Positions 2,535 to 60,381 of a stretch of 64,000 nt of DNA are shown one piece after another (the stretch's first letter is position 1; the number at the start of each line of letters is the position of its first letter). The stretch covers positions 10,188 through 74,187 of the forward strand of contig CASDXP010000002.1 in the NCBI GenBank assembly GCA_949285455.1, written 5' to 3'. The stretch is from an uncultured bacterium. Lineage in GTDB: Bacteria; Bacillota_I; Bacilli_A; RFN20; CAG-826. The notes under the pieces were generated by a model that was not told where the DNA came from, made no database searches, and was given only the letters and a program-made list of their open reading frames with translations. The translations under genes and the position numbers were made by a program.

Positions 2535-3077
2535 TTAATTTGAATAATTTTTCATCGCTTCTTCAAGTTCTTTTTTACTTATCTTATTCGCGTTAAGTTT
2601 AAACATTAATGACTTCGCATTATTGTAACCTAAATGAAAATGCTTAGAGATGAATTCTCTTCTTCGTTTAGAATCCGGAAAACCGCTAAGCTTGAGAGCG
2701 ATAAAAGTTGATAAGTCAATTTCACCTTTTTCCCGCAAAAATGAAGTAGAATAATGTTTTAAAGCTTCTAAAACTACCTCTTTTGAAGATTCCGCTACTC
2801 CGACCTTACCTTTTTTCATCGCATCGGCTTTATCGATGTAAACATTGACGAATTTATCCACGAATTTAGCAATTTCTTGACGTATTTTCATACCTGGATA
2901 ATCAGGATCGGTCAACACTACAATCGTTTTTTTATTTTGGATGCTTTTTAGGTAGTCAATTGTTTCACGTGGAACCGCAGTTCCATTGGTTATGACGCAC
3001 TCAACATCGAGGAAAGAGCGTATAAATTGTTCATCTTGTCGGCCTTCGACCACTAAAACGATATTTGATTCTTTCAT
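2535..3077 (-). CDS. rnmV: Ribonuclease M5 (TOPRIM domain)
   Basis: IVLVVEGRQDEQFIRSF...DPDYPGMKIRQ TOPRIM motifs. Conserved position between tatD and rsmA. Confidence 0.85.
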   Translation of the reverse strand: MKESNIVLVVEGRQDEQFIRSFLDVECVITNGTAVPRETIDYLKSIQNKKTIVVLTDPDYPGMKIRQEIAKFVDKFVNVYIDKADAMKKGKVGVAESSKEVVLEALKHYSTSFLREKGEIDLSTFIALKLSGFPDSKRRREFISKHFHLGYNNAKSLMFKLNANKISKKELEEAMKNYSN

Positions 3078-3853
3078 AAATTTGTTTTCACGTGAAACAA
3101 TCTAGCCACATTTTCGCTCGTGATTTTTGCAGCTTCTTCTTCACTTATATCTTTGATATTAGCGAGTGCTTTTAAGACGAGTCTTACTTGCTTTGGGGAG
3201 TTTTCTTTTCCTCTAAATGGATGGGGTGATAAATAAGGTGAATCAGTTTCCACTAAGAGCCTATCTAAGGGTGTAGCAAGACACGCTTCTTTAGGCGTTT
3301 TTGCGTTCGTAAAAGTTAAAGGCCCTCCGAAAGAAATATATAAACCTAAATCGATAAAATCTTTAACCATTTCTTTTGGACCACTATAACAATGCATCAC
3401 TCCCCCGTACAAGGGTTTAACTTCTCTTAACACTTTTAAAGTTTCATTAATCGCATCTCTAGAATGAATGATGACTGGAAGTTTTAAATTGTTCGCGTGT
3501 CTTATTTGATCTTTAAAAACATCGATTTGTAATTGTCTTTGTGATTCATCTTTTTCCCAATAAAAATCTAAACCAATTTCTCCAATAGCCACTAATTTTT
3601 TGCTTTTAATCTTTTTTACATCGTTATATTCTTCTTCGGTCGTGTTTTTTATTTCACTTGGATGAATCCCTACCGCGTAATAAACATTTTCGTATTCGCC
3701 CGCAATTAAAAGCGCACGTAAAGAAGATTTATAAGTATCACTTGGGCAGATGATGATTTTTACATCTTCTTTATAAGCTTCTTCAATTAATTCTTTTCTT
3801 TTCAAGAAAAGGCTATCATCGTTTAAATGACAATGTGAATCGATTACTAACAT
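3074..3853 (-). CDS. tatD: TatD-family metal-dependent DNase (YabD/YcfH)
   Basis: N-terminal MLVIDSHCHLND and a conserved His/Asp/Glu metal-ligand pattern. Confidence 0.85.
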   Translation of the reverse strand: MLVIDSHCHLNDDSLFLKRKELIEEAYKEDVKIIICPSDTYKSSLRALLIAGEYENVYYAVGIHPSEIKNTTEEEYNDVKKIKSKKLVAIGEIGLDFYWEKDESQRQLQIDVFKDQIRHANNLKLPVIIHSRDAINETLKVLREVKPLYGGVMHCYSGPKEMVKDFIDLGLYISFGGPLTFTNAKTPKEACLATPLDRLLVETDSPYLSPHPFRGKENSPKQVRLVLKALANIKDISEEEAAKITSENVARLFHVKTNL

Positions 3854-8272: not shown

Positions 8273-9628
8273 ATGGATAAAACAATATCGGAAATTACAC
8301 AGATCTGGGACCGCGTCTTAGCGAAGGTTAAAGATAGTGTGGATTTTAATATTTATAGTTCTTTCTTCGCGCCTACGTACGTGCATAAATTAGAAAATAA
8401 TAAGTTATATGTTGTTACGACTTCCAGCTTAGCGAAGCAACTTCTTTCTACAAATTATTTAGATTTCGTTCTTTCGATTTTGCTCGAAGAAACTCAAACA
8501 CAATATGAAATTGAATATATCTTAGAATCGGAAGTGAACGCAAAGGCGAAAAAAGTTGAAGAAAATAAACAACCTTTTTTCTCTGGTGTAAGAGTTAATC
8601 CTAATTGTACTTTTGATAATTTTATCGTAGGACCATCAAACAAAGAAGCACAACAAGCTGCTCTAATCGTCGCTTCTAATTCTGGTAAAATGTATAACCC
8701 TTTATTCATCTATTCCGACTCTGGATTAGGTAAAACTCACCTACTTCACGCGATAGGAAATTATTATAAAAAGAACAATCCAAATCGTAAGGTTTTATAT
8801 ATTCCTGCGGATGTTTTTGTCGATGAATTTGTCCGCGCTGTGCGGGGAGAATCCGATGATTCTAATATTAAAGGATATATTAATTCTGCGGATTTATTGC
8901 TCATAGATGATGTACAATTCCTCGCTAATAAGCAGCAGACACAAGAAATGTTTTTCTCTTGCTATAACACCCTTTATAACAACAATAAGCAAATCGTCAT
9001 TACAAGCGACCGCTACCCCTCTGAATTAAAAGGTCTACCTGATCGTTTAGTGTCTCGTTTCTCTTCTGGCTTGACAGTTAACATCAATAAGCCAAATGTT
9101 GAAACGTGCGTATCTATTTTAAAAAGTAAAATATCTGCTTCTGGTTTAAATACCGCTAATTTTGATGATGAAGCTTTATCATATCTTGCAAGTCAATATT
9201 CTTCCAATGTGCGTGAGCTTGAAGGTGCACTCAATTCTTTACTTTATTACAGCGTGAACGTAAAGAAATCTCAACATGTTACATTTAACGATGCATTAGA
9301 GTCTTTAGGCGGAGCGAATAGACCGTCTTCAAAAAGTAACACGATCACCGAAGCTACTATCATTAACGAAGTTGCAGATTATTATCGCTTAACCCCTTCT
9401 CAATTAACTGGAAAGATTCGCATCTCCCAAATTTCTTGGGCAAGACATGTTGCGATGTATCTTATTAGAGAAATATTAGACACACCTTTTATTAAAATTG
9501 GCACTATCTTTAGCGGGGCCCACCACACTACTGTGATGTCCGCTGTGGAAAAAATTGATCAAAAATATCGTCACGATGCAACCGTTAAACAAGCTATAGA
9601 TGAGATTAAAAAACATCTTGGTCGATAA
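8273..9628 (+). CDS. dnaA: Chromosomal replication initiator protein DnaA
   Basis: AAA+ Walker A GLGKTHLLHAIG; the C-terminal domain IV is conserved. Confidence 0.97.
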   Translation: MDKTISEITQIWDRVLAKVKDSVDFNIYSSFFAPTYVHKLENNKLYVVTTSSLAKQLLSTNYLDFVLSILLEETQTQYEIEYILESEVNAKAKKVEENKQPFFSGVRVNPNCTFDNFIVGPSNKEAQQAALIVASNSGKMYNPLFIYSDSGLGKTHLLHAIGNYYKKNNPNRKVLYIPADVFVDEFVRAVRGESDDSNIKGYINSADLLLIDDVQFLANKQQTQEMFFSCYNTLYNNNKQIVITSDRYPSELKGLPDRLVSRFSSGLTVNINKPNVETCVSILKSKISASGLNTANFDDEALSYLASQYSSNVRELEGALNSLLYYSVNVKKSQHVTFNDALESLGGANRPSSKSNTITEATIINEVADYYRLTPSQLTGKIRISQISWARHVAMYLIREILDTPFIKIGTIFSGAHHTTVMSAVEKIDQKYRHDATVKQAIDEIKKHLGR

Positions 9629-9689
9629 GCATTATTTTAATAAAATAAAAATTGTTCAAAGAGCAAAGATAATGTGATAGAATTTAAAA

Positions 9690-9760
9690 GTAGCGAAAAG
9701 AAGTTTTCCACAAAATCCACAAAATCCACAGTCGTTATTATTATTATTTATAATAAAGAA
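9690..9760. promoter_or_regulatory. Second DnaA-box cluster plus an AT-rich stretch (DUE-like) between dnaA and dnaN
   Basis: TTTTCCACA AAATCCACA AAATCCACA followed by TTATTATTATTATTTATAATAAA. This bipartite oriC is typical of Firmicutes and Mollicutes. Confidence 0.75.
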
Positions 9761-9771
9761 GGAGAGAAAAT

Positions 9772-10893
9772 ATGATATTTACAATAAGAAAAGATGTATT
9801 TCTCAAAGCGCTTAATGTCGCTAATAGGGCGCTTTCTTCTAAAGTTGCACTCCCAATTCTTAATTCTTTAAAACTTGAATTAGATGAAGAAGGGCTACAT
9901 ATTACTGGAAGCAATAACGATATAACAATAAAGACAACCGTTCCTTTAAAAGAAAACGATGAAGAAATTATTAGCAACACTAAATTTGGTGGAGCTTTAG
10001 TAAACGGGCGTCTTCTTACTGAAATTGTTAGAAAGTGTGAAAGAGATACTTTGACATTCGATATTTTTGATGAAACGATCGTCAAAATTAAATATGGAAA
10101 CTCTGGTTTTAATCTAAATTCAGCAAGAGCGGAAGAATATCCTGACTTCGATATGGAAGAAAAAGGCGTTGAAGTTGGTATGAAAGCTTCTTTATTTTCA
10201 AATTTAGTTGATACGGTTGCGTTTGCCGCTTCCACGAAAGAGCAAAGACCAGTTTTAACTGCAATTAATTTCGAAGCTAACGATGGTAGACTTGCTTGCA
10301 CGACTACGGATGGTTTTAGACTTGCAAGAATTGAAGCGAATTTAGATACGAACGAATCTTTCGTTGCAAACGTGCCTGCTAAGATGGCGCAAGAAGTAGC
10401 GAGATTAATCGATGGTGAAGAAAATATTCGTATCTATTTTGATACGAAAAAAGCTTTGTTTGTCTTCGGTAAAACTATCGTCAGCGTTAGATATGCCGCT
10501 GGTGAATTCCCCAACGCTAAAACTATCATTCCAAAGAGTTTTAATTACTTCTTAGAAATCAACGCTCAAGAATTACTTTCAGCGATGGATAGAGTTTCAA
10601 CTCTTTCTTTAGAAAGAGATAACATCGTCACCCTCAAAATGTCCGAATCGAGCGTAGAAGTTTCTTCTAAAGATAGCCAAAACGGTTCCGCGAACGAAGA
10701 AATTAGCGTTTTCCAATATCAAAACGAACCATTAGAAGTAAGTTTCAACTCTTCTTATGTAGCGCAGGCGATCAAGGCTGTTGGAACGACCGATGTCATC
10801 TTAGCATTTTTAGGCGAAATGAAGCCTTTTACGGTCAAGTCCACCAAAGATGACTCCATCGTCCAATTAGTGACGCCTAGACGCACTTATTAA
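9772..10893 (+). CDS. dnaN: DNA polymerase III beta sliding clamp
   Basis: MIFTIRKDVFLKALNVANRALSS N-terminus; 373 aa with three-domain clamp architecture. Position after dnaA. Confidence 0.93.
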   Translation: MIFTIRKDVFLKALNVANRALSSKVALPILNSLKLELDEEGLHITGSNNDITIKTTVPLKENDEEIISNTKFGGALVNGRLLTEIVRKCERDTLTFDIFDETIVKIKYGNSGFNLNSARAEEYPDFDMEEKGVEVGMKASLFSNLVDTVAFAASTKEQRPVLTAINFEANDGRLACTTTDGFRLARIEANLDTNESFVANVPAKMAQEVARLIDGEENIRIYFDTKKALFVFGKTIVSVRYAAGEFPNAKTIIPKSFNYFLEINAQELLSAMDRVSTLSLERDNIVTLKMSESSVEVSSKDSQNGSANEEISVFQYQNEPLEVSFNSSYVAQAIKAVGTTDVILAFLGEMKPFTVKSTKDDSIVQLVTPRRTY

Positions 10894-10925
10894 GCTAAAA
10901 ATAGGCGATTTTAAGCTAATGAATT

Positions 10926-10950
10926 CAAGGGAATAAATTGTTATTCCCTT
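10926..10950 (+). terminator. Rho-independent terminator after dnaN
   Basis: Hairpin AGGGAATA-aattg-TATTCCCT followed by TTTTT. Confidence 0.6.
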
Positions 10951-10994
10951 TTTAATTTATTTTTAGTATAATTACTCCGTAGGGTTTTTATTAT

Positions 10995-11217
10995 ATGAAT
11001 AAAAAAGAGCAAATTATCGTCTTTAAAGGTCCATATCTCACTTTGGGGCAATTGCTCAAGAAATTAGACCTTATCGATTCTGGTGGTGAAGCTAGACTTT
11101 TCTTAGCGACACATAAAGTTTCTGTCGACGGCGAAATTGAAACTAGAAGAGGAAGGAAACTCTACGATTGTTCTTACGTGGTCATCGATCAAAATAATTA
11201 CCGATTAAAAGAAGAAG

Positions 11218-11231
<14 letters not shown>
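10995..11231 (+). CDS. yaaA: S4-domain RNA-binding protein YaaA
   Basis: SGGEARLFLATHKVSVDGEIETRRGRKL S4 motif. Conserved slot between dnaN and recF. Confidence 0.8.
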
Positions 11232-14306
<3,075 letters not shown>

Positions 14307-14325
14307 TGAAAGGTGGTAACAAATA

Positions 14326-16911
14326 ATGTTTGAAGAAGAAGATAAAATTATCAACGAAGAAGTTGATGAAAAACTAGAAGAAGAAACACCCGTAAGCGAA
14401 GAGGGTGGAAATGATGATGGTGAAGCTAGTGCTGGTATCGTTCCAGGCTTAGTAGATGTCGACATCGCTAAAGAAGTAAGAAGTTCCTTCTTAGATTACG
14501 CTATGAGCGTCATCGTTGCACGTGCTTTACCAGATGTACGCGACGGTTTAAAACCCGTCCACAGACGTATTATTTTCGGTATGAACGAATCAGGTATCAC
14601 TCCTGATAAACCTTATAAAAAATGCGCTCGTATCGTCGGTGACGTCATGGGTAAATATCACCCGCACGGCGACGCCGCTATCTATTCAACTTTAGTCAGA
14701 TTAGCCCAACCCTTCTCCATGCGTTATACGCTTGTGGATGGTCACGGTAACTTTGGTTCCGTCGATGGTGATGAAGCTGCCGCTATGCGTTACACTGAAG
14801 CGAGAATGTCCAAACTATCTTTAGAGATGGTAAGAGATATTAATGATGATACTATCGACTTTGTCGATAACTACGATGGAACAGAAAGAGAACCATCAAT
14901 TTTACCTTCTAGAATTCCTAATTTATTAATTAATGGTAGTTCAGGTATTGCTGTTGGTATGGCGACTAACATGCCCCCACATAATCTCGGTGAAATTATC
15001 GATGGTATTCGCGCGGTCGCATTAAATCCAGAAATAAGCGTCGAAGAAATTATGGCTAATGCCATCCATGGTCCTGATTTCCCAACCGGTGGCATCATCT
15101 TAGGAAGAAGTGGTATTAAACAAGCCTATGAAACTGGTCAAGGAACGATTACAATTCGTTCTAAGTGCGAAATCGAAGAACACGCGAATGGTAAAAAATC
15201 TATCATCGTCACCGAAATTCCTTACCAAGTTAATAAAGCGACGATGATCGAAAAGATTGCCGATCTTGTTAAAAACAAGATTATCGATGGTATTACCGAC
15301 ATTCGTGATGAATCGAACCACGAAGGTATTAGGGTAGTTATCGAAGTAAGAAAAGATATCATTCCAGAAGTTTTATTAAATCAACTTTATAAGAATACTC
15401 AACTACAAGTATCTTATGGTATTATCAACCTTTGCTTAGTCAATAATGTACCAAAGGTACTAGGTATTAAAAACTTATTACAAGAATACTTAAATTTCCA
15501 AATTGAAGTCATCGAAAGAAGGACGAAATATCGTCTAAGAAAAGATGAACAAAGAGACCATGTCGTTTTAGGTTTACTTAAAGCCAGAGAAAACATTAAA
15601 GAAGTAGTGGATATTATCGTTGCTTCTGAAAGTGCGGAAGCAAGCGCGAAAGCTTTGATTGAAAGATTCGGTTTTAGCGACGCTCAAACGCAAGCTATCC
15701 TCGCTCTTCCATTAAGAAGATTATCTGGCATCGAAATCGAAAAACTTAAACAAGAAAGAATTCAACTTGAAAAGAACATTGCTTACTATCGCGACTTACT
15801 TAGCGATAGAAACAAACTTCAAGGCGTCGTCCTCGATGAATTAGTAGAAATTAAAAATCGCTACAATGATGAACGTAAGACAGAAATTTCTGATGCCTTA
15901 TCAACGATTGAAGATGAAGACTTAATCCCGGTGGAAAATATCGTCATCACTTTGACCGCTGGCGGATACGTGAAACGTCAAACTGTCGATACCTTCCACA
16001 CGCAAAATAGAGGTGGTAAAGGTATAAGAGGAACGCGTACGCATGAAAATGACGCAGTGAAGATTTTAGTCTACACTATCACGCACACCGATTTATTGTT
16101 CTTTACTACCCTTGGTAAAGTTTATCGTATGAGAGCGCACCAAATTCCTGCTTATAGTCGTGAATCGAAAGGTCTACCTATTCAAAACCTCATCAACTTA
16201 GATGAAAACGAAAAAGTTATCGCTATCATTTCTCTTGATCATTATGGCGAAGGAACTTACCTTTCCTTCATTACTAAGAAAGGTTTAATCAAGCGTACAA
16301 AAATTGAAGAATTCTTATCAATTAGACAAAATGGTAAGATCGCCATCTCTTTAAGAGATGATGATATGTTACTTGATGTTAAACACACATCTGGTTCCGC
16401 TGTCATTGGTATCGCCTCTAGCCTTGGTAAAATGGTTAAATTTGATGAAAACGATGCAAGAGCGATGGGTAGAACCGCAAGCGGTGTGAAAGCGATGAAC
16501 ACCGATGGTGGTGAATGTATCGGCGCTATTACAAGTGAAGAAGGAAATCTCGTTCTCGTCTTATCTGAAAATGGCTACGGTAAGATGACTTCATTTGATG
16601 AATATCGTATGACCAACCGCGGCACAAAAGGCGTTAAGACTTTGAAGACGACCGAAAAAATTGGTAATATTGTATGTGTTGCGATGGTCAATGGTAACGA
16701 AGACTTGATGGTTGTCACCGATAACGGAGTCATTATTCGTACACCACTTGAACAAGTACGCATCGCTTCAAGAAACACGCAAGGAGTGCGCATTATTCAA
16801 CTTGATAATAAGCGCAAAGTTTCCAACGTCGCTATCGTCCCACACGAAGAAGAAGAGGAAGAAGAAGGCGACGCGAATAATGTAGAAATTGCGGAAAATC
16901 CCGCGGAATAA
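14326..16911 (+). CDS. gyrA: DNA gyrase subunit A
   Basis: The AMRYTE(A) active-site Tyr region, the QRDR-like region [17 protein letters not shown], and an acidic C-terminal tail. Confidence 0.96.
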
Positions 16912-19293: not shown

Positions 19294-19345
19294 TCGTATT
19301 AAGTAATTCAGTAATGAATTGTCTAAATAATTTCTCTATAATATT

Positions 19346-19433
19346 ACTTGCCACCGCGATAGAGAGGTTATGAACCAGGTCAGGATAGGAATATAGCAGC
19401 CTTAAGTAATCGCTCTATGCGCGGTGGTTTGGC
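19346..19433 (+). ncRNA. ffs: Small (4.5S/scRNA-type) SRP RNA
   Basis: CCAGGTCAGGATAGGAATATAGCAGCC matches SRP RNA domain IV (E. coli CCAGGUCAGGUCCGGAAGGAAGCAGCC). A closing helix pairs GCCACCGCG with CGCGGTGGT. A TATAAT -10 lies just upstream. In Bacillus the scr gene is next to tadA, as here. Confidence 0.8.
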
Positions 19434-19443
19434 TTTTAAAACG

Positions 19444-51527: not shown

Positions 51528-51764
51528 ATGGAATTAACTAGAAAAATCGAGAAAACAATCGATGATTTTATTCTTAATAGCGGTGAACGAGAGAAAAATA
51601 ATATTCACAAATCTTTGCTCATTAACGGATTAAGGCAAGTGGGAAAAACGCATACTATCCGAAAATGTTTAAATTTACCCATCGATGATCTTCCCGTCAT
51701 TGTTTCTTCATTTAAAAACAAAGATTTTGTTGTCACATCAATTCATTTAATTGAGTTAACTTAA
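51528..51764 (+). pseudogene. Truncated N-terminal fragment of a COG1373-type AAA+ ATPase
   Basis: LINGLRQVGKTHTI Walker A is homologous to the N-termini of the 51884, 55920 and 59032 proteins. It stops after 78 aa. Confidence 0.55.
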
Positions 51765-51774
51765 TTATATTATT

Positions 51775-51799
51775 TTAAGAGCCAAAGCGGCTCTTTTTG
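51775..51799 (+). terminator. Rho-independent terminator
   Basis: AGAGCC-aaagc-GGCTCT followed by TTTTT. Confidence 0.65.
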
Positions 51800-51814
51800 A
51801 TTGTAAAAAATGAT

Positions 51815-51851
51815 ATTTCGCAAAAATGAAAAAATAATAGTTTTGCGAAAT
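51815..51851. promoter_or_regulatory. 37-bp element with 11-bp inverted repeats, ATTTCGCAAAA-N15-TTTTGCGAAAT, overlapping the -35 region upstream of a TATAAT at 51861
   Basis: Perfect 11-bp arms. A second copy lies at 53091-53127. Confidence 0.6.
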
Positions 51852-51883
51852 GAAAAGCAGTATAATCATAGTGGGTAAGTTGT

Positions 51884-53074
51884 ATGAAATTGATAGTTAG
51901 AGAAAATTATTTAAATAAATTAATTGATGTAATCGATACACCAGATATAAAAATCATTACTGGCGTTAGAAGATCGGGGAAATCTAAACTATTAGATTGT
52001 TTCTATGATTATTTAAAATCCAATAATAAAGGCAATATTATAAGAATTAAATTGAATTTAAAGCAATTTGAAAAATTGCTGGATAAAGAAAAATTATATG
52101 AATATATAGACCAAAATTATGCCGAAGATGTTAATAATTATTTATTGATTGATGAAATTCAACTATGCAAAGACTTTGAAAGAATTATAAATAGTTTGCA
52201 TGAAGAAGAAAGATTCGACATATATTTGACAGGCTCAAACGCATTTCTTTTATCAAGCGATTTAGCGACTTTGTTTGGCGGGCGAGTTTTTGAAATAAAT
52301 ATGTTTCCATTTTCATTTAAGGAATTTTTAAAATATTTTCAATATCAAGATATTTATCAAGCTTTTGATGAATATGTCATAAAGGGAGGAATGTCTGGAA
52401 GTTATTTATATAAAAATAGCACGGATGCTTTTAAATACATAGAAGGCATTTATAAGACCACTATCGTAAAAGATATCGTACAAAAATATAAGATTGATAA
52501 CGAAGACTTGTTAATTCTAATCGCTAATTATTTAATTGATAATTTAGGAAATATTACATCGATTAGAAATTTGGCAAATTGTTTAACTTCTAACACTTAC
52601 AAGACTAACGATAAAACAGTAGGTTCTTATTTAGATTATTTATGTAAATCATTCTTGTTTTATCCTCTAAGAAGATATGACATTAAAGGTAAAAAATATT
52701 TAAAATCAGAAAGAAAATATTGTTTAGTAGATACTTCTTTTAGATATGCGACAATAGGAACGAAAAATGCAGATTATGGACACATATATGAAAACATAGT
52801 CGCCATTGAATTGTTGCGTAGGGGTTATGAACTATACGTTGGTGTGTTAAAAAATAAAGAAATAGATTATGTGGCAATTAAAAACGGAAATAAATTATAT
52901 ATTCAGGTAAGTGACGATATATCAAAAGAGGAAACATTTAAAAGAGAAATAGAACCATTATTAAGTATTAAAGATGCCTATCCTAAATTACTAATTGCTA
53001 GAACTAAACATCCTGAAAGCCAATATGAAGGGGTAGCAATAGTAGATATCGCCGATTGGCTAAATTATAAATAA
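51884..53074 (+). CDS. COG1373-type AAA+ ATPase with a degenerate C-terminal DUF4143/PD-(D/E)xK-like domain
   Basis: Walker A ITGVRRSGKSKL. The C-terminal EIDYVAI...IQVS region has QVS in place of the E-x-K seen in its paralogs. Confidence 0.7.
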   Translation: MKLIVRENYLNKLIDVIDTPDIKIITGVRRSGKSKLLDCFYDYLKSNNKGNIIRIKLNLKQFEKLLDKEKLYEYIDQNYAEDVNNYLLIDEIQLCKDFERIINSLHEEERFDIYLTGSNAFLLSSDLATLFGGRVFEINMFPFSFKEFLKYFQYQDIYQAFDEYVIKGGMSGSYLYKNSTDAFKYIEGIYKTTIVKDIVQKYKIDNEDLLILIANYLIDNLGNITSIRNLANCLTSNTYKTNDKTVGSYLDYLCKSFLFYPLRRYDIKGKKYLKSERKYCLVDTSFRYATIGTKNADYGHIYENIVAIELLRRGYELYVGVLKNKEIDYVAIKNGNKLYIQVSDDISKEETFKREIEPLLSIKDAYPKLLIARTKHPESQYEGVAIVDIADWLNYK

Positions 53075-53090
53075 TAGGCTTATTATCTTC

Positions 53091-53127
53091 ATTTCGCAAA
53101 AATTAAAAAATAATAATTTTGCGAAAT
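53091..53127. repeat. Second copy of the ATTTCGCAAAA-N15-TTTTGCGAAAT element, immediately downstream of the 51884 gene
   Basis: About 34 of 37 positions are identical to the copy at 51815-51851. Confidence 0.6.
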
Positions 53128-53327
53128 AACAATTATATTATTTCAAATTTGCATCTTCTAAGGTAATGAATTCCTTTTTCTGGTCACCCCCTTTCACGAT
53201 GCGACCTTTTTTGCTCGTTCCGCCTCAACTTTTACTTTAATGATTTCATCAATAAGTTCTTCTTTAGATAGAGAATCATAGTTCTTGTAATCAATAGTTT
53301 TCTTTTTGTTAACACAATAACCAAAAA

Positions 53328-53398
53328 TCCGATGTTTGTGACAAAAAATGCGAAAAAAATCCCATGTTTGTGACTAAATTTATCCCATGTTTGTAGCT
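53328..53398. repeat. Three direct repeats of ATCC(C/G)ATGTTTGT(G/A)(A/G)C
   Basis: Copies at 53328-53343, 53360-53375 and 53383-53398, in a non-coding decayed region. Confidence 0.55.
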
Positions 53399-53722
53399 AG
53401 TCGCTTAGAACAGTTCTAGTAAAACGCAAATTTTAGCTCTTTATTTGACTATAAAAATGAAGATGATTCACTAAGTTTTTCAAATGTTTGCGTAAAACAA
53501 TACTTTTGTTGCATTAAGATTTTATAGAAAGAGTAGCGAAAATAGATATCACTAACGAACTAAATTATTTCAAATTCTTTTCGTTTAAATGTTTAAATTT
53601 CTTTCTCTTATTACCTCTTTTTGATGCGCTTATTTAACAAAGCATAAAAAACTAGGTTTTCATCAAAACTTAAATTTTTTTCTTTTATTTTCTTTATATT
53701 TATCGTGGAGGTAAAAAAACAA

Positions 53723-53878
53723 ATGGCAAACAAATATGTTGGTGAATTTTTCGTAAATAACATGCGAACGAAAGAAGAAGTATTTGCGAACGATTCCATC
53801 CAAGCAAGAAAAATTATCGAAGCAAAATATCCTAACTGTAATATTAGATGGATCTTCTTCCCTAAAATTGTTCGTTAA
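53723..53878 (+). CDS. Small protein (51 aa), MANKYVGEFFVNNMRTKEEVFANDSIQARKIIEAKYPNCNIRWIFFPKIVR
   Basis: GGAGG RBS seven nucleotides upstream. Below the ORF-track size cutoff. Confidence 0.4.
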   Translation: MANKYVGEFFVNNMRTKEEVFANDSIQARKIIEAKYPNCNIRWIFFPKIVR

Positions 53879-53904
53879 AAAATAGAAAGGAAAATATTTA
53901 ATTT

Positions 53905-54676
53905 ATGGGTATCTTTAAAACAGTATTTGAATCATTATTTGGAAGTAAAAAACAAACTTCCACACAGCCTAATCCTGATGAGCCAAGCGCTCCAGTGAAT
54001 GATCATAATCCAAGAAATAAAAAAAGCGAACTGGTTTTCTTCTAAAGAAGGTATCGAAAGTTTAAAAGAACATACGACACCTAAAGCTTACTTATTAGAA
54101 GAAAGATTAAATCAAGAATTTAAAAATAAAAATTTCGGTGGAAGAGATGTTTCGTTCGACATTTTCTTAAATGTTTATCATAAGGACGCGGTCATCCCGC
54201 AAGTGTATTTCTCTAACTTTGTTAACACAATCGAAGCTCAACCATTAAAATATGTAGGGCCAAGTGAAATGCTTACAGGCGTCCTTTCCACCTTAGCGAA
54301 AACTTATTATTTAGATGATGATGGTGAACCAGTGGAAAAGAAAAGTGCGCTTACGCCTGAAGACCTAGTGTCTTTTGAAAATAATCCAGTTCTTAAATTC
54401 GTTAAAGCTTTCACTTGTTTCCAAATTGAAGATGATGATGAAGGATCATGGACTGATAAATTTGCTTTATATTCTGATGTTTTAATTTTCTTAGGATTAT
54501 GTAGTTTTGGAGATAAGAATGTCTTAAATGAAAATGCTTGGTTGCTTGATAAAACTACTTACTTCAATAATTTAGGTACGGTGAAGAAAGAAAAAGGATT
54601 CATCAAATATTGCATCGAAAAATGCACCTATCCTGATTATTGGAAGAGCAAATTAGACGAATTAGACGAAAAATAA
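53905..54676 (+). pseudogene. Gene with the MGIFK-type N-terminus interrupted by a frameshift at an A7 tract (54019-54025). It would be intact with A6.
   Basis: Frame 1 reads MGIFKTVFESLFGSKKQ...PRNKKSELVFF* with its stop at 54043. Deleting one A joins it to the 53999-54676 ORF (..KKANWFSSKEGIESL..). The N-terminus is paralogous to the 49205 protein. Confidence 0.5.
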
Positions 54677-54767: not shown

Positions 54768-54794
54768 TGAATGGTGTTTTGTTATCATATACAT

Positions 54795-55643
54795 ATGATA
54801 AAATATTCAATTAGATATTTTAATGGTAAACCAATAAGAGCTATTTGGGACGCTGATAAAGCGATATGGCGATATTCCGCAGTGGATTTTATTACTGTTT
54901 TAATAAATCCCCATTCATCTCGCCGTTATTGGAACAATGTAAAAGCAAGAAATCCTACACTACTAGAGTTTTGTAGCCAAGCAAAACTATATGCATCTGA
55001 TAATAAAAAATATTTAACCGATGTCATCGATGAATTTGGTGTAAGGCTTTTACTTACTATCATTCCTTCTAAATATAAAAAAGAAATTCAAGATTGGTTA
55101 AAAGGAATGCTCGATCCCATCGATGAACAAAGTAAAAGGAAAGCTTATCAGCTATATCAAACATCACTCATTTCTGAAGACGAAATCGGAAAGACTATCG
55201 CCTTACAAAAAATACATGCTTTTCTATTTGAAGGATTATATCCTTTCGCGGGACAAATTCGCTCGAAAACAATAGCAAAAGGTGGATTCGTTTTCGCAAA
55301 CGGTGACTTTCTTCCTCAAATTCTTCCCAAGATAGATAAAATGATGGAAGATAATTTTGATCACATCGTGGAAAAATATGTGGAAATGAACATCGCTCAC
55401 CCATTTTTAGAAGGAAATGGTAGAGCGACGAGAATTTGGCTTGATTTAATACTCATTAAAAATCTTAAAAAATGTATCGATTGGTCAAAGATTGATAAAG
55501 ATGAATATCTCTTAGCGATGAAAGAAAGCCCATTTAATGATTTAAGGATTAAACAATTATTAAAAGATGCCATAACTAGTGAAATAGATAATAGAGAACT
55601 ATTTATTAAAGGAATCGATACCTCATATTATTACGAACGTTAA
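54795..55643 (+). CDS. Fic-family protein of the RhuM type. Start placed at MIKYSIRYF.
   Basis: HPFLEGNGRATR Fic motif. The N-terminal IRAIWDADKAIWRYSAVDFITVL resembles the RhuM / Bro-N-like N-terminus. Confidence 0.75.
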   Translation: MIKYSIRYFNGKPIRAIWDADKAIWRYSAVDFITVLINPHSSRRYWNNVKARNPTLLEFCSQAKLYASDNKKYLTDVIDEFGVRLLLTIIPSKYKKEIQDWLKGMLDPIDEQSKRKAYQLYQTSLISEDEIGKTIALQKIHAFLFEGLYPFAGQIRSKTIAKGGFVFANGDFLPQILPKIDKMMEDNFDHIVEKYVEMNIAHPFLEGNGRATRIWLDLILIKNLKKCIDWSKIDKDEYLLAMKESPFNDLRIKQLLKDAITSEIDNRELFIKGIDTSYYYER

Positions 55644-55806: not shown

Positions 55807-55893
55807 AAAAACTCCCTTGAAAAAAGTTCCAACTCGATATAAAACTCCCTTGAAAAAAGTGCAAAAATGACTTCAAACTCCCTTGAAAAAAGT
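55807..55893. repeat. Three direct repeats of AAAACTCCCTTGAAAAAAGT with 34-bp periodicity, upstream of a COG1373 gene
   Basis: Copies at 55807-55827, 55841-55860 and 55875-55893. Confidence 0.7.
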
Positions 55894-55919
55894 TTAAAAT
55901 GTGTTTGGGAGATAAAGAA

Positions 55920-57272
55920 ATGTTTAAAAGAAAAATTTATGATCAAATCTTAAATTGGAAAAAATCAAGAAATCACAAACCATTAATTATTAGTGGTTTA
56001 AGACAAATCGGTAAGACGACGATTGTCGAAAATTTTGCCAAGGAAAATTACGAATCTGTCATCAAACTAGATTTTAGAAAAGACGCAAGTCTACATGAAA
56101 TTTTCGATGGCGATTTTGATATCAACACAATAATTTTTTCATTGTCATTAAAAAACAGCGAATATAAATTTATACCAAATAAAACTTGTTTAATTTTTGA
56201 TGAATTGCAAGATTGCCCGAATGCTAGGTCGTCTTTAAAATATTTTGCCTTAGATGGAAGATTTGATGTCATTTGTACTGGCTCTTTACTCGGCATTAAA
56301 AATTATCGTCACACCAAGAAACCTTTTAGAGGTATACCAGTGGGATTCGAAGATTATCTATTGATGAAACCGATGGATTTCGAAGAATTTCTATGGGCTA
56401 ATTCAATCGATCAATCTATTATTGATAATTTAAAGCAATGCATAGAAAAGAATACTCAAGTCAATACTTTTATACATCAAAAGATGCTTGGTTTATTCAA
56501 TAGATACATTTGTATTGGTGGGATGCCTGAAGTAGTGGATGCATACGTTAACAGTAATGATTTTAACGAAGTTAGAAAAATTCAAAGAAGAATTTTGCAA
56601 AGTTTTGAGGCTGATTTTGGCACTCATCTTAATGACCATAATGAAATAATTGTGGATGATAACGCTAAGGCAAAAATTATTGCGACCTTTAAGTCGATAC
56701 CACACCAACTAGCGAAAGATAATCAAAAATTTCAATATTCTGCTATTGTGAAAAATGCCAAAGGGAAAGAATATAAAACTGCTATTGAATGGTTAGAAGA
56801 TTATGGTCTTATTTCTCGATGCTATAACTTAACTTTGCCCGAGCTTCCATTCGATTCTTTTGTTACACAAAATTACTTCAAGATATATGCTGCCGATAGC
56901 GGATTATTTATCGCAATGTTAGATGATAATATTCCAGATCTAATCATCAATAATAAACTTAAGATTGCTAAAGGAGCAATATATGAAAATATAGTCGCAG
57001 ATGCTTTTTCTAAATTAGGAAGAAAATTATATTTCTATCATAAAAACAGCGGGCTAGAAATTGATTTCATTACTAGTTTTCATAAAGAAGTTGCGCTTGT
57101 AGAAGTAAAATCTAAAGATGGGAATGCAAAAGCAGCAAAAGAGATATTAAAAAATAAAGAAAAATATCAAGTAAATAAATTAATTAAACTTACCGCACAA
57201 AATATTGGCATTAATGAAAATATCTATACCTATCCTTATTATTTAACTTCATTCATATTTAAAGATGAATAA
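55920..57272 (+). CDS. COG1373-type AAA+ ATPase with a C-terminal DUF4143/PD-(D/E)xK-like domain. Start placed at MFKRK behind a GGGAG RBS.
   Basis: Walker A ISGLRQIGKTT; Walker B LIFDELQ; C-terminal EIDFITS...ALVEVKSK (D...E-V-K). Confidence 0.75.
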   Translation: MFKRKIYDQILNWKKSRNHKPLIISGLRQIGKTTIVENFAKENYESVIKLDFRKDASLHEIFDGDFDINTIIFSLSLKNSEYKFIPNKTCLIFDELQDCPNARSSLKYFALDGRFDVICTGSLLGIKNYRHTKKPFRGIPVGFEDYLLMKPMDFEEFLWANSIDQSIIDNLKQCIEKNTQVNTFIHQKMLGLFNRYICIGGMPEVVDAYVNSNDFNEVRKIQRRILQSFEADFGTHLNDHNEIIVDDNAKAKIIATFKSIPHQLAKDNQKFQYSAIVKNAKGKEYKTAIEWLEDYGLISRCYNLTLPELPFDSFVTQNYFKIYAADSGLFIAMLDDNIPDLIINNKLKIAKGAIYENIVADAFSKLGRKLYFYHKNSGLEIDFITSFHKEVALVEVKSKDGNAKAAKEILKNKEKYQVNKLIKLTAQNIGINENIYTYPYYLTSFIFKDE

Positions 57273-58897: not shown

Positions 58898-59000
58898 TTA
58901 CTAAACTCCCTTGATTTTTAGTCAAAAAATTGTCAAAACTCGCTTTAAAATTAGTCAAAAATATTACTAAACTCCCTTGATTATTAGTCAAATAACTTGT
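58898..59000. repeat. Two copies of a 37-bp direct repeat, TTACTAAACTCCCTTGATT(T/A)TTAGTCAAA..., that share the AAACTCCCTTGA core with the 55.8-kb repeats
   Basis: Copies at 58898-58934 and 58964-59000. The second abuts an extended -10 TGTTATAAT. Confidence 0.7.
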
Positions 59001-59031: not shown

Positions 59032-60381
59032 ATGTATTTAAAACGTAAGATTGATAAAATTTTATTAGAATGGTGGAAAAAACCACATCATTCCCCCGCC
59101 TTAGTAAGTGGGGTAAGGCAATGTGGCAAAACGATGTCTATTCTTCAATTTGCTTCAAAGCATTTCGCTCATGTCATCTACATCAATTTTTGGAAGACAC
59201 CGAAGATTAAAGAATGTTTCGATACATCTTTAGACGTTGATAATATCATCAAATTATTATCATTTTTCGATGCGAGTTTTTCTTTTGAATCTTTCAAAAC
59301 AATCATCATTTTAGATGAAATTCAAGATTGTCCAAACGCACGTTTGTCGCTCAAATTTTTCAAAGAAGATGGTCGATTTGAAGTCATCGCTAGCGGATCA
59401 TATATTGGACTTAACATTTTAGAAAATGAAGTTCCTGTTCCTATGCCTAATGGTGCGGAAGATATCATTTATATGAAGACGATGGATTTTGAAGAATTCT
59501 TGTGGGCGAATGGTTACGATGGGGAAACTATTTCTCATCTAGAAAATTATTTTGAAAAGAAAGAAACTGTTCCATCTTCCATCCATGAGAAAATGAAACA
59601 GTTATTCAAAGAATACATGTGCGTTGGGGGCTATCCAGAAGTTGTTTTAGATTATGTTTCTTCACATAATTTTTCATCCGCGTTCAATAAAATTAATAGC
59701 CTTATCTTTGATATTAAAGGTGACCCAATTAAAAGGATGAACGAAGAAGGAAAAAGTTTATATAATCCAAGCGAAATTATGCGCATTCAAAATGCTTTCG
59801 ATTTGATTGTTTCATCTTCCTTTAAAGATAATCAAAGATTCGTCATCTCTAAAATTAGTCATGGGAATGGATTAGTTAATAAAGACGCAGTTAATTATTT
59901 AGTAAACGCAAATGTAGCTTTTAAAGTTCATAATGTAGCGAATGTAAGCTTACCTTTAATCGTCTCCAAAATAGAAAGTGATTTCAGATTATATTACAGC
60001 GATATCTCTATTTTTATGGCTATGTGTGGCTTCGACACCATTAAGGCTTTAATGCAAGATAGCTTAGGAATGAATAAAGGTCAAATTTATGAAGCCGCTT
60101 TAGCGGACTCTTTGTATAAGGCTTCTATTCCTACTTATTATTTTCGTAAAAGTAGTGGTCTAGAAATAGATTTTGTCATATCTTATTTAGGATATTCAAC
60201 TCTAATCGAGGCTAAAGCGAAAAAAGGTAACGCTAAGTCTTCAAAAACTATCATGAATAATAAGGAACATTATGGAGTAACTAAATTAATTAAATTCGGT
60301 GATTACAATATCGCGCAAGAAAATGATGTTCTTACCTTGCCTTACTATTTAGCGTTCCTACTCAATAGAACAAAAGTCTAA
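59032..60381 (+). CDS. COG1373-type AAA+ ATPase with a C-terminal DUF4143/PD-(D/E)xK-like domain
   Basis: Walker A VSGVRQCGKTM; Walker B IILDEIQ; C-terminal EIDFVIS...TLIEAKAK. Confidence 0.75.
   Translation: MYLKRKIDKILLEWWKKPHHSPALVSGVRQCGKTMSILQFASKHFAHVIYINFWKTPKIKECFDTSLDVDNIIKLLSFFDASFSFESFKTIIILDEIQDCPNARLSLKFFKEDGRFEVIASGSYIGLNILENEVPVPMPNGAEDIIYMKTMDFEEFLWANGYDGETISHLENYFEKKETVPSSIHEKMKQLFKEYMCVGGYPEVVLDYVSSHNFSSAFNKINSLIFDIKGDPIKRMNEEGKSLYNPSEIMRIQNAFDLIVSSSFKDNQRFVISKISHGNGLVNKDAVNYLVNANVAFKVHNVANVSLPLIVSKIESDFRLYYSDISIFMAMCGFDTIKALMQDSLGMNKGQIYEAALADSLYKASIPTYYFRKSSGLEIDFVISYLGYSTLIEAKAKKGNAKSSKTIMNNKEHYGVTKLIKFGDYNIAQENDVLTLPYYLAFLLNRTKV

Follow-up and report, generated by a model that had tools for sequence, protein, structure and literature searches.

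What role could two copies of one palindrome play at the two ends of a single gene? This question is raised by a 64-kb stretch of contig CASDXP010000002.1 from an uncultured bacterium with a ~32% GC genome (64,000 nucleotides, referred to below as the window and numbered from its first letter). A gene on the + strand at 51884..53074 encodes a 396-amino-acid protein with an AAA+ ATPase core, a predicted winged helix and a PD-(D/E)XK-like domain, and is bracketed by 37-bp palindromes at 51815..51851 (site 1) and 53091..53127 (site 2), neither of which is assigned a strand. We find that the gene forms a conserved unit with its promoter and with one or two cognate sites, and that the recognition helix of the protein co-evolves with the site. 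Sequence comparisons and a structure model further lead us to consider it likely that both palindromes are DNA-binding sites of the protein encoded between them.

The gene product matches the Pfam families AAA_14 (PF13173, 9e-32) and DUF4143 (PF13635, 4e-17) and, over its full length, the PADLOC PDC-S01 profile PDLC04787 (1e-141). DUF4143 is equivalent to COG1373, which has been listed as a PD-(D/E)XK family (PMC3424549), and PDC-S01 ranked as the fourth most common defence candidate in one survey (PMC12988326). Few uncharacterised proteins of bacteria and archaea are as abundant as those of COG1373/PDC-S01, and our search of the wide family returned 11,405 clusters at 50% identity. We found no description of the DNA targets of COG1373/PDC-S01 proteins in the searchable literature.

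The palindrome pair and its distribution

The motif ATTTCGCAAAA-N15-TTTTGCGAAAT, whose core is TCGC, occurs exactly twice in the window, at the two positions given by an earlier note on this DNA, and both copies match all 22 specified arm bases (0 mismatches). No further match appears when up to three mismatches are allowed (two matches in total, against an expectation of 0 from 100 shuffles), and single half-sites with at most one mismatch occur at chance level, the four palindrome arms excepted. The two 37-mers share 35 of 37 positions (94.6%), a likeness that the earlier note had recognised and had put somewhat too low, at ~92%. This likeness ends at the palindrome edges, beyond which the flanks are unrelated.

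Site 1 is embedded in the promoter of the gene (51838..51866, + strand, read from the sequence), which consists of a weak -35 element, TAGTTT (51838-51843), a 17-nt spacer and a perfect -10 element, TATAAT (51861-51866). TAGTTT straddles the palindrome spacer and right arm, so the overlap with the -35 position that had been described before is borne out; the palindrome ends 9 nt before TATAAT, close to the 10 bp previously given. Site 2, formerly placed immediately after the stop codon (53072-53074), lies next to it, with a true gap of 16 nt. The DNA that follows (53128-53998) contains no long open reading frame and only insignificant gene remnants, in agreement with its earlier description as decayed and non-coding.

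We next asked whether this element recurs elsewhere. A motif-first scan of one genome per species with TTTCGCAAAA-N(13-17)-TTTTGCGAAA (20 specified bases) recovered at least 120 loci, designated here by L numbers, against an estimated handful of chance hits. Among the matches listed, the spacer is exactly 15 bp in 91 of 124 copies, 45 of the N15 copies sit 15-47 bp before the start codons of orthologs (51-71% amino-acid identity), and there is usually one palindrome locus per genome. Orientation and geometry relative to the gene are uniform in these 45 loci, in each of which the site overlaps the core promoter of its own gene. In the ortholog promoters a -35-like TTGAyT or TTTACT begins in the final bases of the spacer and runs into the first Ts of the right arm, which itself takes up the interval between -35 and -10; TATAAT follows ~9 nt on, succeeded by the ribosome-binding site and ATG.

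The remaining copies in the scan are truncated by the end of the locus (several still show the start of the gene), are solo, or represent unrelated motifs such as a Roseovarius N16 family, a Bacteroidales N14 family and intragenic matches; the copies in L074, L075, L076 and L111 adjoin truncated genes. Hosts span Bacillota, Bacteroidota, Spirochaetota, Actinomycetota and Pseudomonadota, and include gut and rumen Clostridia, Bacilli, Negativicutes, Bacteroidales, Treponema/Spirochaetia, Atopobiaceae/Eggerthellaceae and Succinatimonas, together with one archaeal metagenome-assembled genome (MAG), a Methanocorpusculum that may be a binning contaminant. The element is therefore far from confined to the window and is tightly associated, across phyla, with COG1373 genes, so that the observation named in the earlier note as a refutation, two sites only with no association elsewhere, is clearly not what is seen. 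Copies frequently, but not always, precede such genes, given the solo and unrelated examples. Plasmid homologs from Lactobacillus and Moraxella (~38% identity) lack this palindrome type.

Several scan loci depart from the simple arrangement. L035 carries three tandem TCGC palindromes ~120 bp apart at 2970-3245 with no adjacent gene, and in several loci (L012, L068, L078 and L103) a second, degenerate palindrome lies ~60 bp before the main one. TCGC palindromes also occur 90-310 bp before Fic-domain genes (HPFxDGNGR) in the Treponema loci L007, L032 and L042 and in L117, and the window itself has a Fic gene at 54771-55643; a general link between palindrome and Fic was rejected, as the Fic motif was present in 0 of 92 loci sampled by protein. 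The homologs on plasmids of L. gasseri (L282) and M. osloensis (L283) are annotated 'ATP-binding protein' and each adjoins a small 'recombinase family protein' gene, and Acinetobacter accounts for 171 of the 219 plasmid hits.

Recognition-helix residues and the palindrome core

To complement the scan, 80 orthologs (54-71% identity) were drawn from metagenomes without reference to the motif. An upstream palindrome of the same architecture is present in 57 of these 80 protein-first loci. What is conserved is ATT-NNNN-AAAA-N15-TTTT-N'N'N'N'-AAT, in which the 4-nt core varies, always symmetrically, between TCGC, TCCC, CCCC, AGCC, TACC, CCGC, CCGA, ATCC and ACCC. A detector indifferent to the core (ATT-N4-AAAA-N15-TTTT-N4'-AAT) identified 235 palindromes in 1.49 Mb of loci and 5 in shuffled sequence. 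Of these palindromes, 115 are located 0-90 bp upstream of the gene and 37, from ~36 loci in several phyla, at -12 to +44 nt from the stop codon. In every bracketed locus (TCGC, TCCC, CCCC, AGCC and TACC groups) the downstream core is the same as the upstream core.

The variation in the core made it possible to look for matching variation in the protein. We aligned 88 non-identical orthologs over ~400 columns and labelled each by the core present upstream of its own gene. Groups that share a core do not form clades, with identity falling to 49% within groups and rising to 87% between them. Residues 241-244 are nevertheless near-invariant inside each core group and switch between groups: TNDK accompanies TCGC, INHK accompanies TCCC, ADHK accompanies CCCC, IHHT accompanies AGCC, and xNHN or xNHV accompanies TACC. 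In the window protein these residues are Thr-Asn-Asp-Lys (codons at 52604..52615, + strand), with Asn-Asp-Lys at 242-244 facing a TCGC core. For the small, held-out CCGC group x-D-D-K was predicted beforehand, and VDDK was observed.

Individual residues track individual bases. The best predictor of core base 1 is residue 242 (symmetric uncertainty 0.83, next best 0.45), that of base 2 is residue 244 (0.81, next best 0.58) and that of base 3 is residue 243 (1.00, next best 0.48), which is Asp with G and His with C in 88 of 88 sequences. Every one of the 88 proteins differs from its nearest different-core relative at 242-244, and 77 of 86 are identical there to their nearest same-core relative. 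The pairings seem chemically plausible, with Asn set against T:A, Asp against a base pair presenting C, and His or Lys against one presenting G. Distant relatives on viral contigs (33-53% identity) possess A[TC]T-N4-AAAA-N15/16 palindromes of their own and keep the same residue-base code where it is comparable, as with TNHN and ACTTACGAAAA. Because recognition-helix residues co-vary with the palindrome core, the gene product thus likely reads its own flanking sites.

Where these residues lie in the protein was addressed by structure prediction. Protein and profile searches of the PDB gave no hits, and Pfam searches of residues 196-292 of six orthologs at E values up to 10 returned DUF4143 only and no helix-turn-helix family; the assignment of the winged helix therefore comes from the structure model. 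A first AlphaFold run on a shallow alignment (identity at least 59%) left the middle domain at a predicted local distance difference test (pLDDT) score of 60 and was not used for that domain. A second run, on a deep alignment of 104 sequences at 32-90% identity, produced a model with a pLDDT of 94.9 and a predicted template modelling score of 0.92. The model comprises an AAA+ core, lid helices, a winged helix and an alpha/beta domain (298-394). Its winged helix is made up of H1 (207-219), a strand (224-226), H2 (227-236), H3 (243-255) and a beta-hairpin wing (259-266/271-281), and the co-varying residues are predicted to form the N-terminal cap and first turn of the recognition helix, H3. Few positions vary more across the wide family than 243 and 244 (~3.6 bits), which lie beside conserved T245, V/I246, Y249 and L250.

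The remaining domains show a different pattern of conservation. The Walker motifs (GxRRSGKS, and DE in Walker B) are invariant, and in the nuclease-fold domain E303, E326, D328, Y339, Q341 and V342 are near-invariant across the wide family. The canonical (D/E)xK motif is replaced by Q-V-S in the protein under study, which makes nuclease activity uncertain; it reads E-V-K in the other paralogs of the window. Foldseek ranks Orc1/Cdc6 proteins, including the DNA-bound 2v1u and 2qby, as the best matches, along with DnaA; other fold matches are SSO1545 (2fna), PABY2304 (2qen), STAND proteins, TnsC and MuB. The model thus suggests an Orc1/Cdc6- or STAND-like layout with a nuclease-fold tail.

These data suggest a simple recognition scheme, in which each 11-bp arm (ATT-NNNN-AAAA) would be read by one winged helix and residues 242, 244 and 243 would specify core bases 1, 2 and 3. 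Such a scheme, if true for a large clade, would give a testable handle on what COG1373/PDC-S01 proteins bind and how they are controlled. It would also mean that the 'defence gene' label has to be weighed against that of an 'auto-regulated selfish module', and would provide a natural series of orthogonal protein/operator pairs that are potentially useful as regulatory parts.

Proposed operator, auxiliary site and competing explanations

With its centre near -40 and its right arm between -35 and -10, the upstream site is most likely an operator for auto-repression; the promoter-operator that the earlier note saw here stands as a promoter-embedded, operator-like site. Binding at site 1 would occlude RNA polymerase and so let the protein repress its own, potentially harmful, ATPase/nuclease-like gene. 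As for the downstream site, it probably serves the same protein as an auxiliary operator or a roadblock. Once bound, site 2 could reinforce repression through a bridge or loop across the ~1.28-kb gene or, alternatively, could act as a roadblock that insulates the module from neighbouring transcription. Site, promoter, gene and second site would then make up a compact, self-contained module that has spread horizontally among gut and rumen anaerobes, and diversification of the core would keep co-resident paralogs orthogonal. Recombination between the two direct copies may remove the module and leave a solo palindrome behind.

In L150, L153 and L155 (for example L153:3660-3790) the -10 box of a TCCC-type module is interrupted by 127 bp of GC-rich, hairpin-rich sequence, an insertion that comes with a ~10-bp duplication (GGTATAATAA) and parts the operator from the gene. 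L141, L144 and L156 lack the insertion and are otherwise 96-98% identical to these loci.

Properties of the downstream copies set them apart from promoters. A hexamer matching TATAAT at five or more of six positions lies 4-18 nt past the arm in 81 of 87 upstream copies, compared with a TATAAT-like hexamer in 4 of 22 downstream copies and a -35 TTG in 3 of these 22. The closest homolog, L121 (91% amino-acid identity), and L122 likewise have their downstream copy 16 nt after the stop codon, in L121 in a context different from that of the window. Among same-core modules whose proteins are at most 75% identical, identity amounts to 83% in the downstream arms, 48% in the spacers and 31% (the random level) in the flanks, the figure for the arms being inflated by ascertainment through the palindrome-based detection method. 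A downstream copy that is conserved and promoter-less is therefore not a decaying duplicate promoter.

Comparison with characterized systems helps to place this unit. Like Orc1/Cdc6 with origin recognition boxes (ORBs) and DnaA with DnaA boxes, the protein combines an AAA+ module, a lid and what the model indicates is a DNA-reading (winged-)helix domain. Archaeal ORBs are inverted repeats that flank an AT-rich segment beside the initiator gene, and the predicted sites described here resemble them in being inverted repeats around an AT-rich segment adjacent to the gene of the protein itself. The fold match and the anatomy of the sites together thus point to the Orc1/Cdc6 combination of AAA+ and winged helix with inverted repeats around an AT-rich element. 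Unlike Orc1/Cdc6, the window unit comes without evidence of a replication origin (the origin region of the window is at dnaA, 8273-9628), the protein has an additional PD-(D/E)XK-like domain, the sites lie on both sides of the gene with overlap of its promoter, and the core diversifies between close orthologs. Compared with SSO1545, PABY2304 and the STAND NTPases (CED-4, NLRs, Avs), the window protein lacks a sensor or repeat domain and has its nuclease-fold domain at the C-terminus. The winged helix of STAND proteins is not known to act as a sequence-specific reader of gene-flanking sites.

Other parallels come from regulation. Controller (C) proteins of restriction-modification systems, with their C-boxes, and auto-repressed toxin-antitoxin operons share with this unit a mobile, potentially harmful gene with a palindromic operator in its own promoter, and the operator specificity of these systems diverges between homologs in a way that limits cross-talk. 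The present unit differs from them in that regulator and effector would be one 396-amino-acid polypeptide, the arms are 15 bp apart, and the gene has a further site at its 3' end. This second site recalls lac O1/O2, gal OE/OI and deo, in which a promoter operator is paired with a second cognate site for the same protein, hundreds of base pairs away and either inside the gene or past it, as is proposed here; unlike those systems, the spacing is ~1.28 kb, looping is a proposal, and the binder would be an AAA+ protein and not a small tetrameric repressor. By analogy, the unit may thus work like an auto-repressed mobile gene with a palindromic operator and an auxiliary distal operator of the lac/gal kind.

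A number of points weigh against this reading. About half of the orthologs have no detectable downstream copy, which is present in 26 of the 57 protein-first loci with a detected upstream copy (~45%), so that its role would be dispensable or conditional. The centres of the half-sites are separated by 26 bp (~2.5 helical turns), an unusual distance for a simple dimeric repressor. The direction of regulation is taken from operator position only, the window gene's own -35 is poor, and the ascertainment effect noted above makes arm conservation less telling. Some loci, moreover, are metagenome contigs that may be chimeric at repeats, and recurrent breakpoints at the palindrome edge together with an 'empty' syntenic site hint at a role in recombination.

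This last point leads to the competing explanation that survives best, namely that the palindromes are primarily recombination or mobility sites at which the encoded protein or a host recombinase cuts or recombines. The gene with one palindrome would then be excised or integrated as a cassette is, and solo palindromes would mark empty sites or scars. In L117, a related syntenic Bacilli MAG and the closest relative of the window among the fetched loci, a single palindrome joins the left flank of the window (94.7%) to the right flank of site 2 (78.6%) without the gene. L052 agrees with this arrangement in its right flank (92%) and departs from it in its left flank, and the spacer of its palindrome combines parts of both window copies. 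Modules of the AGCC lineage (94-99% identical) meet three unrelated sequences on their left, with the junction exactly 2 bp beyond the outer edge of the upstream palindrome, and homology between the window and L121 is confined to 51813-53126. The near-invariance of E303, E326, D328 and Q341 and the fold matches to TnsC and MuB are also compatible with such a role. The bracket itself recalls RAYT/REP, integron attC and Xer pdif systems, which share with the unit a gene between cognate palindromes, varied contexts and solo sites; as in RAYT/REP, the palindrome type co-evolves with the gene.

Against this stand several observations. No target-site duplications, for which the earlier note had suggested looking, are present at the outer edges of the unit in the window or L121, and copy number is low, with two copies in 64 kb; the unit thus does not resemble a miniature inverted-repeat transposable element (MITE) or an insertion sequence. 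About half of the modules lack the downstream copy, yet their right ends are sharp at the stop codon, and in the AGCC lineage the shared block continues ~150 bp past the downstream palindrome. Neutral flanks are saturated at ~82% nucleotide identity, so the boundary between the window and L121 is uninformative, and most 'sharp boundaries' mark the limits of selection. Transposon-like sharp ends suggested by homology-boundary statistics on 3,765 pairs were discounted for pairs below ~94% identity, as synonymous sites are saturated there. Metagenome assemblies may also break or re-join at repeats, and the (D/E)xK motif is the Q-V-S variant. Deletion between two 37-bp direct repeats requires no dedicated enzyme, and simple recombination of this kind is enough to account for solo palindromes. 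A blast of solo-palindrome flanks against all loci yielded no further clean filled/empty pair beyond window, L117 and L052.

The unit also differs from the named systems in its parts. Unlike RAYT/REP, attC and pdif, it includes no HUH or tyrosine recombinase, its sites carry a promoter and its copy number is low. Xer dif and pdif sites have 11-bp arms around a 6-8-bp centre, in contrast to the 15-bp spacer that predominates among the exact-motif copies and is found in all core variants. The module has its own promoter, as attC cassettes do not, and a non-exhaustive search found no integrase among the neighbours examined. Recognition would be of duplex DNA by a winged helix and not of hairpins. 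The bracketing, the empty L117 site and the breakpoints at palindrome edges thus keep some substance in the earlier suggestion of a recombination site or MITE end, and the absence of target-site duplications, the low copy number and the AGCC overrun speak against it; as the primary function of the palindromes we consider it unlikely. As a separate observation, two loci whose left flanks differ from those of relatives, L052 (362-1522) and L181 (1573-2892), have IS30-like transposase genes no more than ~1 kb from the palindrome.

A related and rather improbable possibility combines both roles in a self-recognising selfish cassette of a type that would be new. An Orc1/Cdc6-like AAA+ protein with a re-programmable winged helix and a nuclease-fold domain would assemble on both sites for auto-repression and also for excision, integration or another form of mobilisation, or the sites would serve as loading or 'self' sites in defence, with the three-residue/three-base code preventing cross-reaction between paralogs.

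We attach very little weight to the idea, put forward in the earlier note, that the downstream copy is the leftover promoter-operator of a lost gene, in this case a decayed tandem paralog. Site 2 is followed by TATATT/TATTAT at about the right distance, and the neighbourhood has several AAA_14/DUF4143 genes and a fragment of one. A 14-residue stretch at 53527-53568 also resembles the C-terminus of the protein, but with E=0.7 it is not significant and was rejected as a remnant. Beyond the window the idea generally fails: the 37 downstream copies follow single genes in many lineages and none precedes a paralog, the detector found no palindrome between two tandem genes in the 1.49 Mb of loci, position relative to the stop codon is fixed, cores match, promoter elements are scarce, and arms are conserved while neutral sequence is randomised.

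It is equally hard to credit a function at the RNA level, in which the downstream palindrome would fold into a hairpin that terminates transcription or stabilises the mRNA 3' end and the upstream palindrome would do so incidentally. The downstream copy is transcribed, compensatory changes between arms are compatible with a stem, and the arms can pair into RNA hairpins with predicted energies of -12 to -16 kcal/mol (z about -3 to -4). The stem is AU-rich with no U-tract after it and was not called by a scan for intrinsic terminators, however, and the AGCC lineage has a canonical GC-rich terminator ~45 nt beyond its downstream palindrome. The upstream copy precedes the transcription start. Outer ATT and inner AAAA are conserved in sequence beyond what pairing would require, and a stem fails to explain the shared core of the copies or the three protein residues that track core bases. 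Finally, the view that the palindrome belongs to some unrelated host regulator, or to a class of generic repeats, and adjoins the gene by coincidence may be dismissed, for although some exact-motif matches are unrelated (the Roseovarius, Bacteroidales and intragenic ones), the cross-phylum association has a fixed geometry and the core co-varies with residues of the adjacent protein.

Genomic neighbourhood

The neighbourhood of the gene resembles a defence island, with an AIPR gene, a Fic/Bro-N gene (PADLOC PDC-S04), two more AAA_14/DUF4143 genes and one N-terminal fragment of such a gene. The three intact AAA_14/DUF4143 genes match PADLOC-type profiles or one another, and the two that were tested match PDC-S01 at ~1e-141. 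As the chromosomal origin gene cluster dnaA, dnaN, gyrB and gyrA lies within the window at 8273-16911, this defence-like island is ~35-50 kb from the origin region. The window also contains the signal recognition particle RNA at 19343-19440.

The two further genes, of a type that we refer to as cog2 (55899-57272 and 59032-60381), are each preceded by three direct AAACTCCCTTGA repeats with 33-bp spacing (arrays at 55808-55886 and 58902-58980), a different cis-motif for a different subfamily. Similar repeats lie ahead of a cog2-type fragment in L045. Directly to the left of site 1, at 51528-51795, lie the remains of a cog2-type ATPase, 78 amino acids from its N-terminus (tblastn 2e-4), and after them a terminator-like hairpin (51777-51795), an arrangement that is kept in L117. 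Among other loci, an extra 416-amino-acid AAA_14/DUF4143 paralog is located upstream of a 79%-identical ortholog in only some of a set of contigs (L123 and L127 compared with L124-L126 and L128-L132), and SbcCD-like genes (Metallophos and AAA_23) are downstream in all of L123-L132.

In the non-coding DNA past site 2, three direct repeats of ATCC[C/G]ATGTTTGTGAC occur at 53327-53399 with spacings of 32 and 23 bp. They adjoin reverse-strand fragments of open reading frames and look like iterons or arm-type sites.

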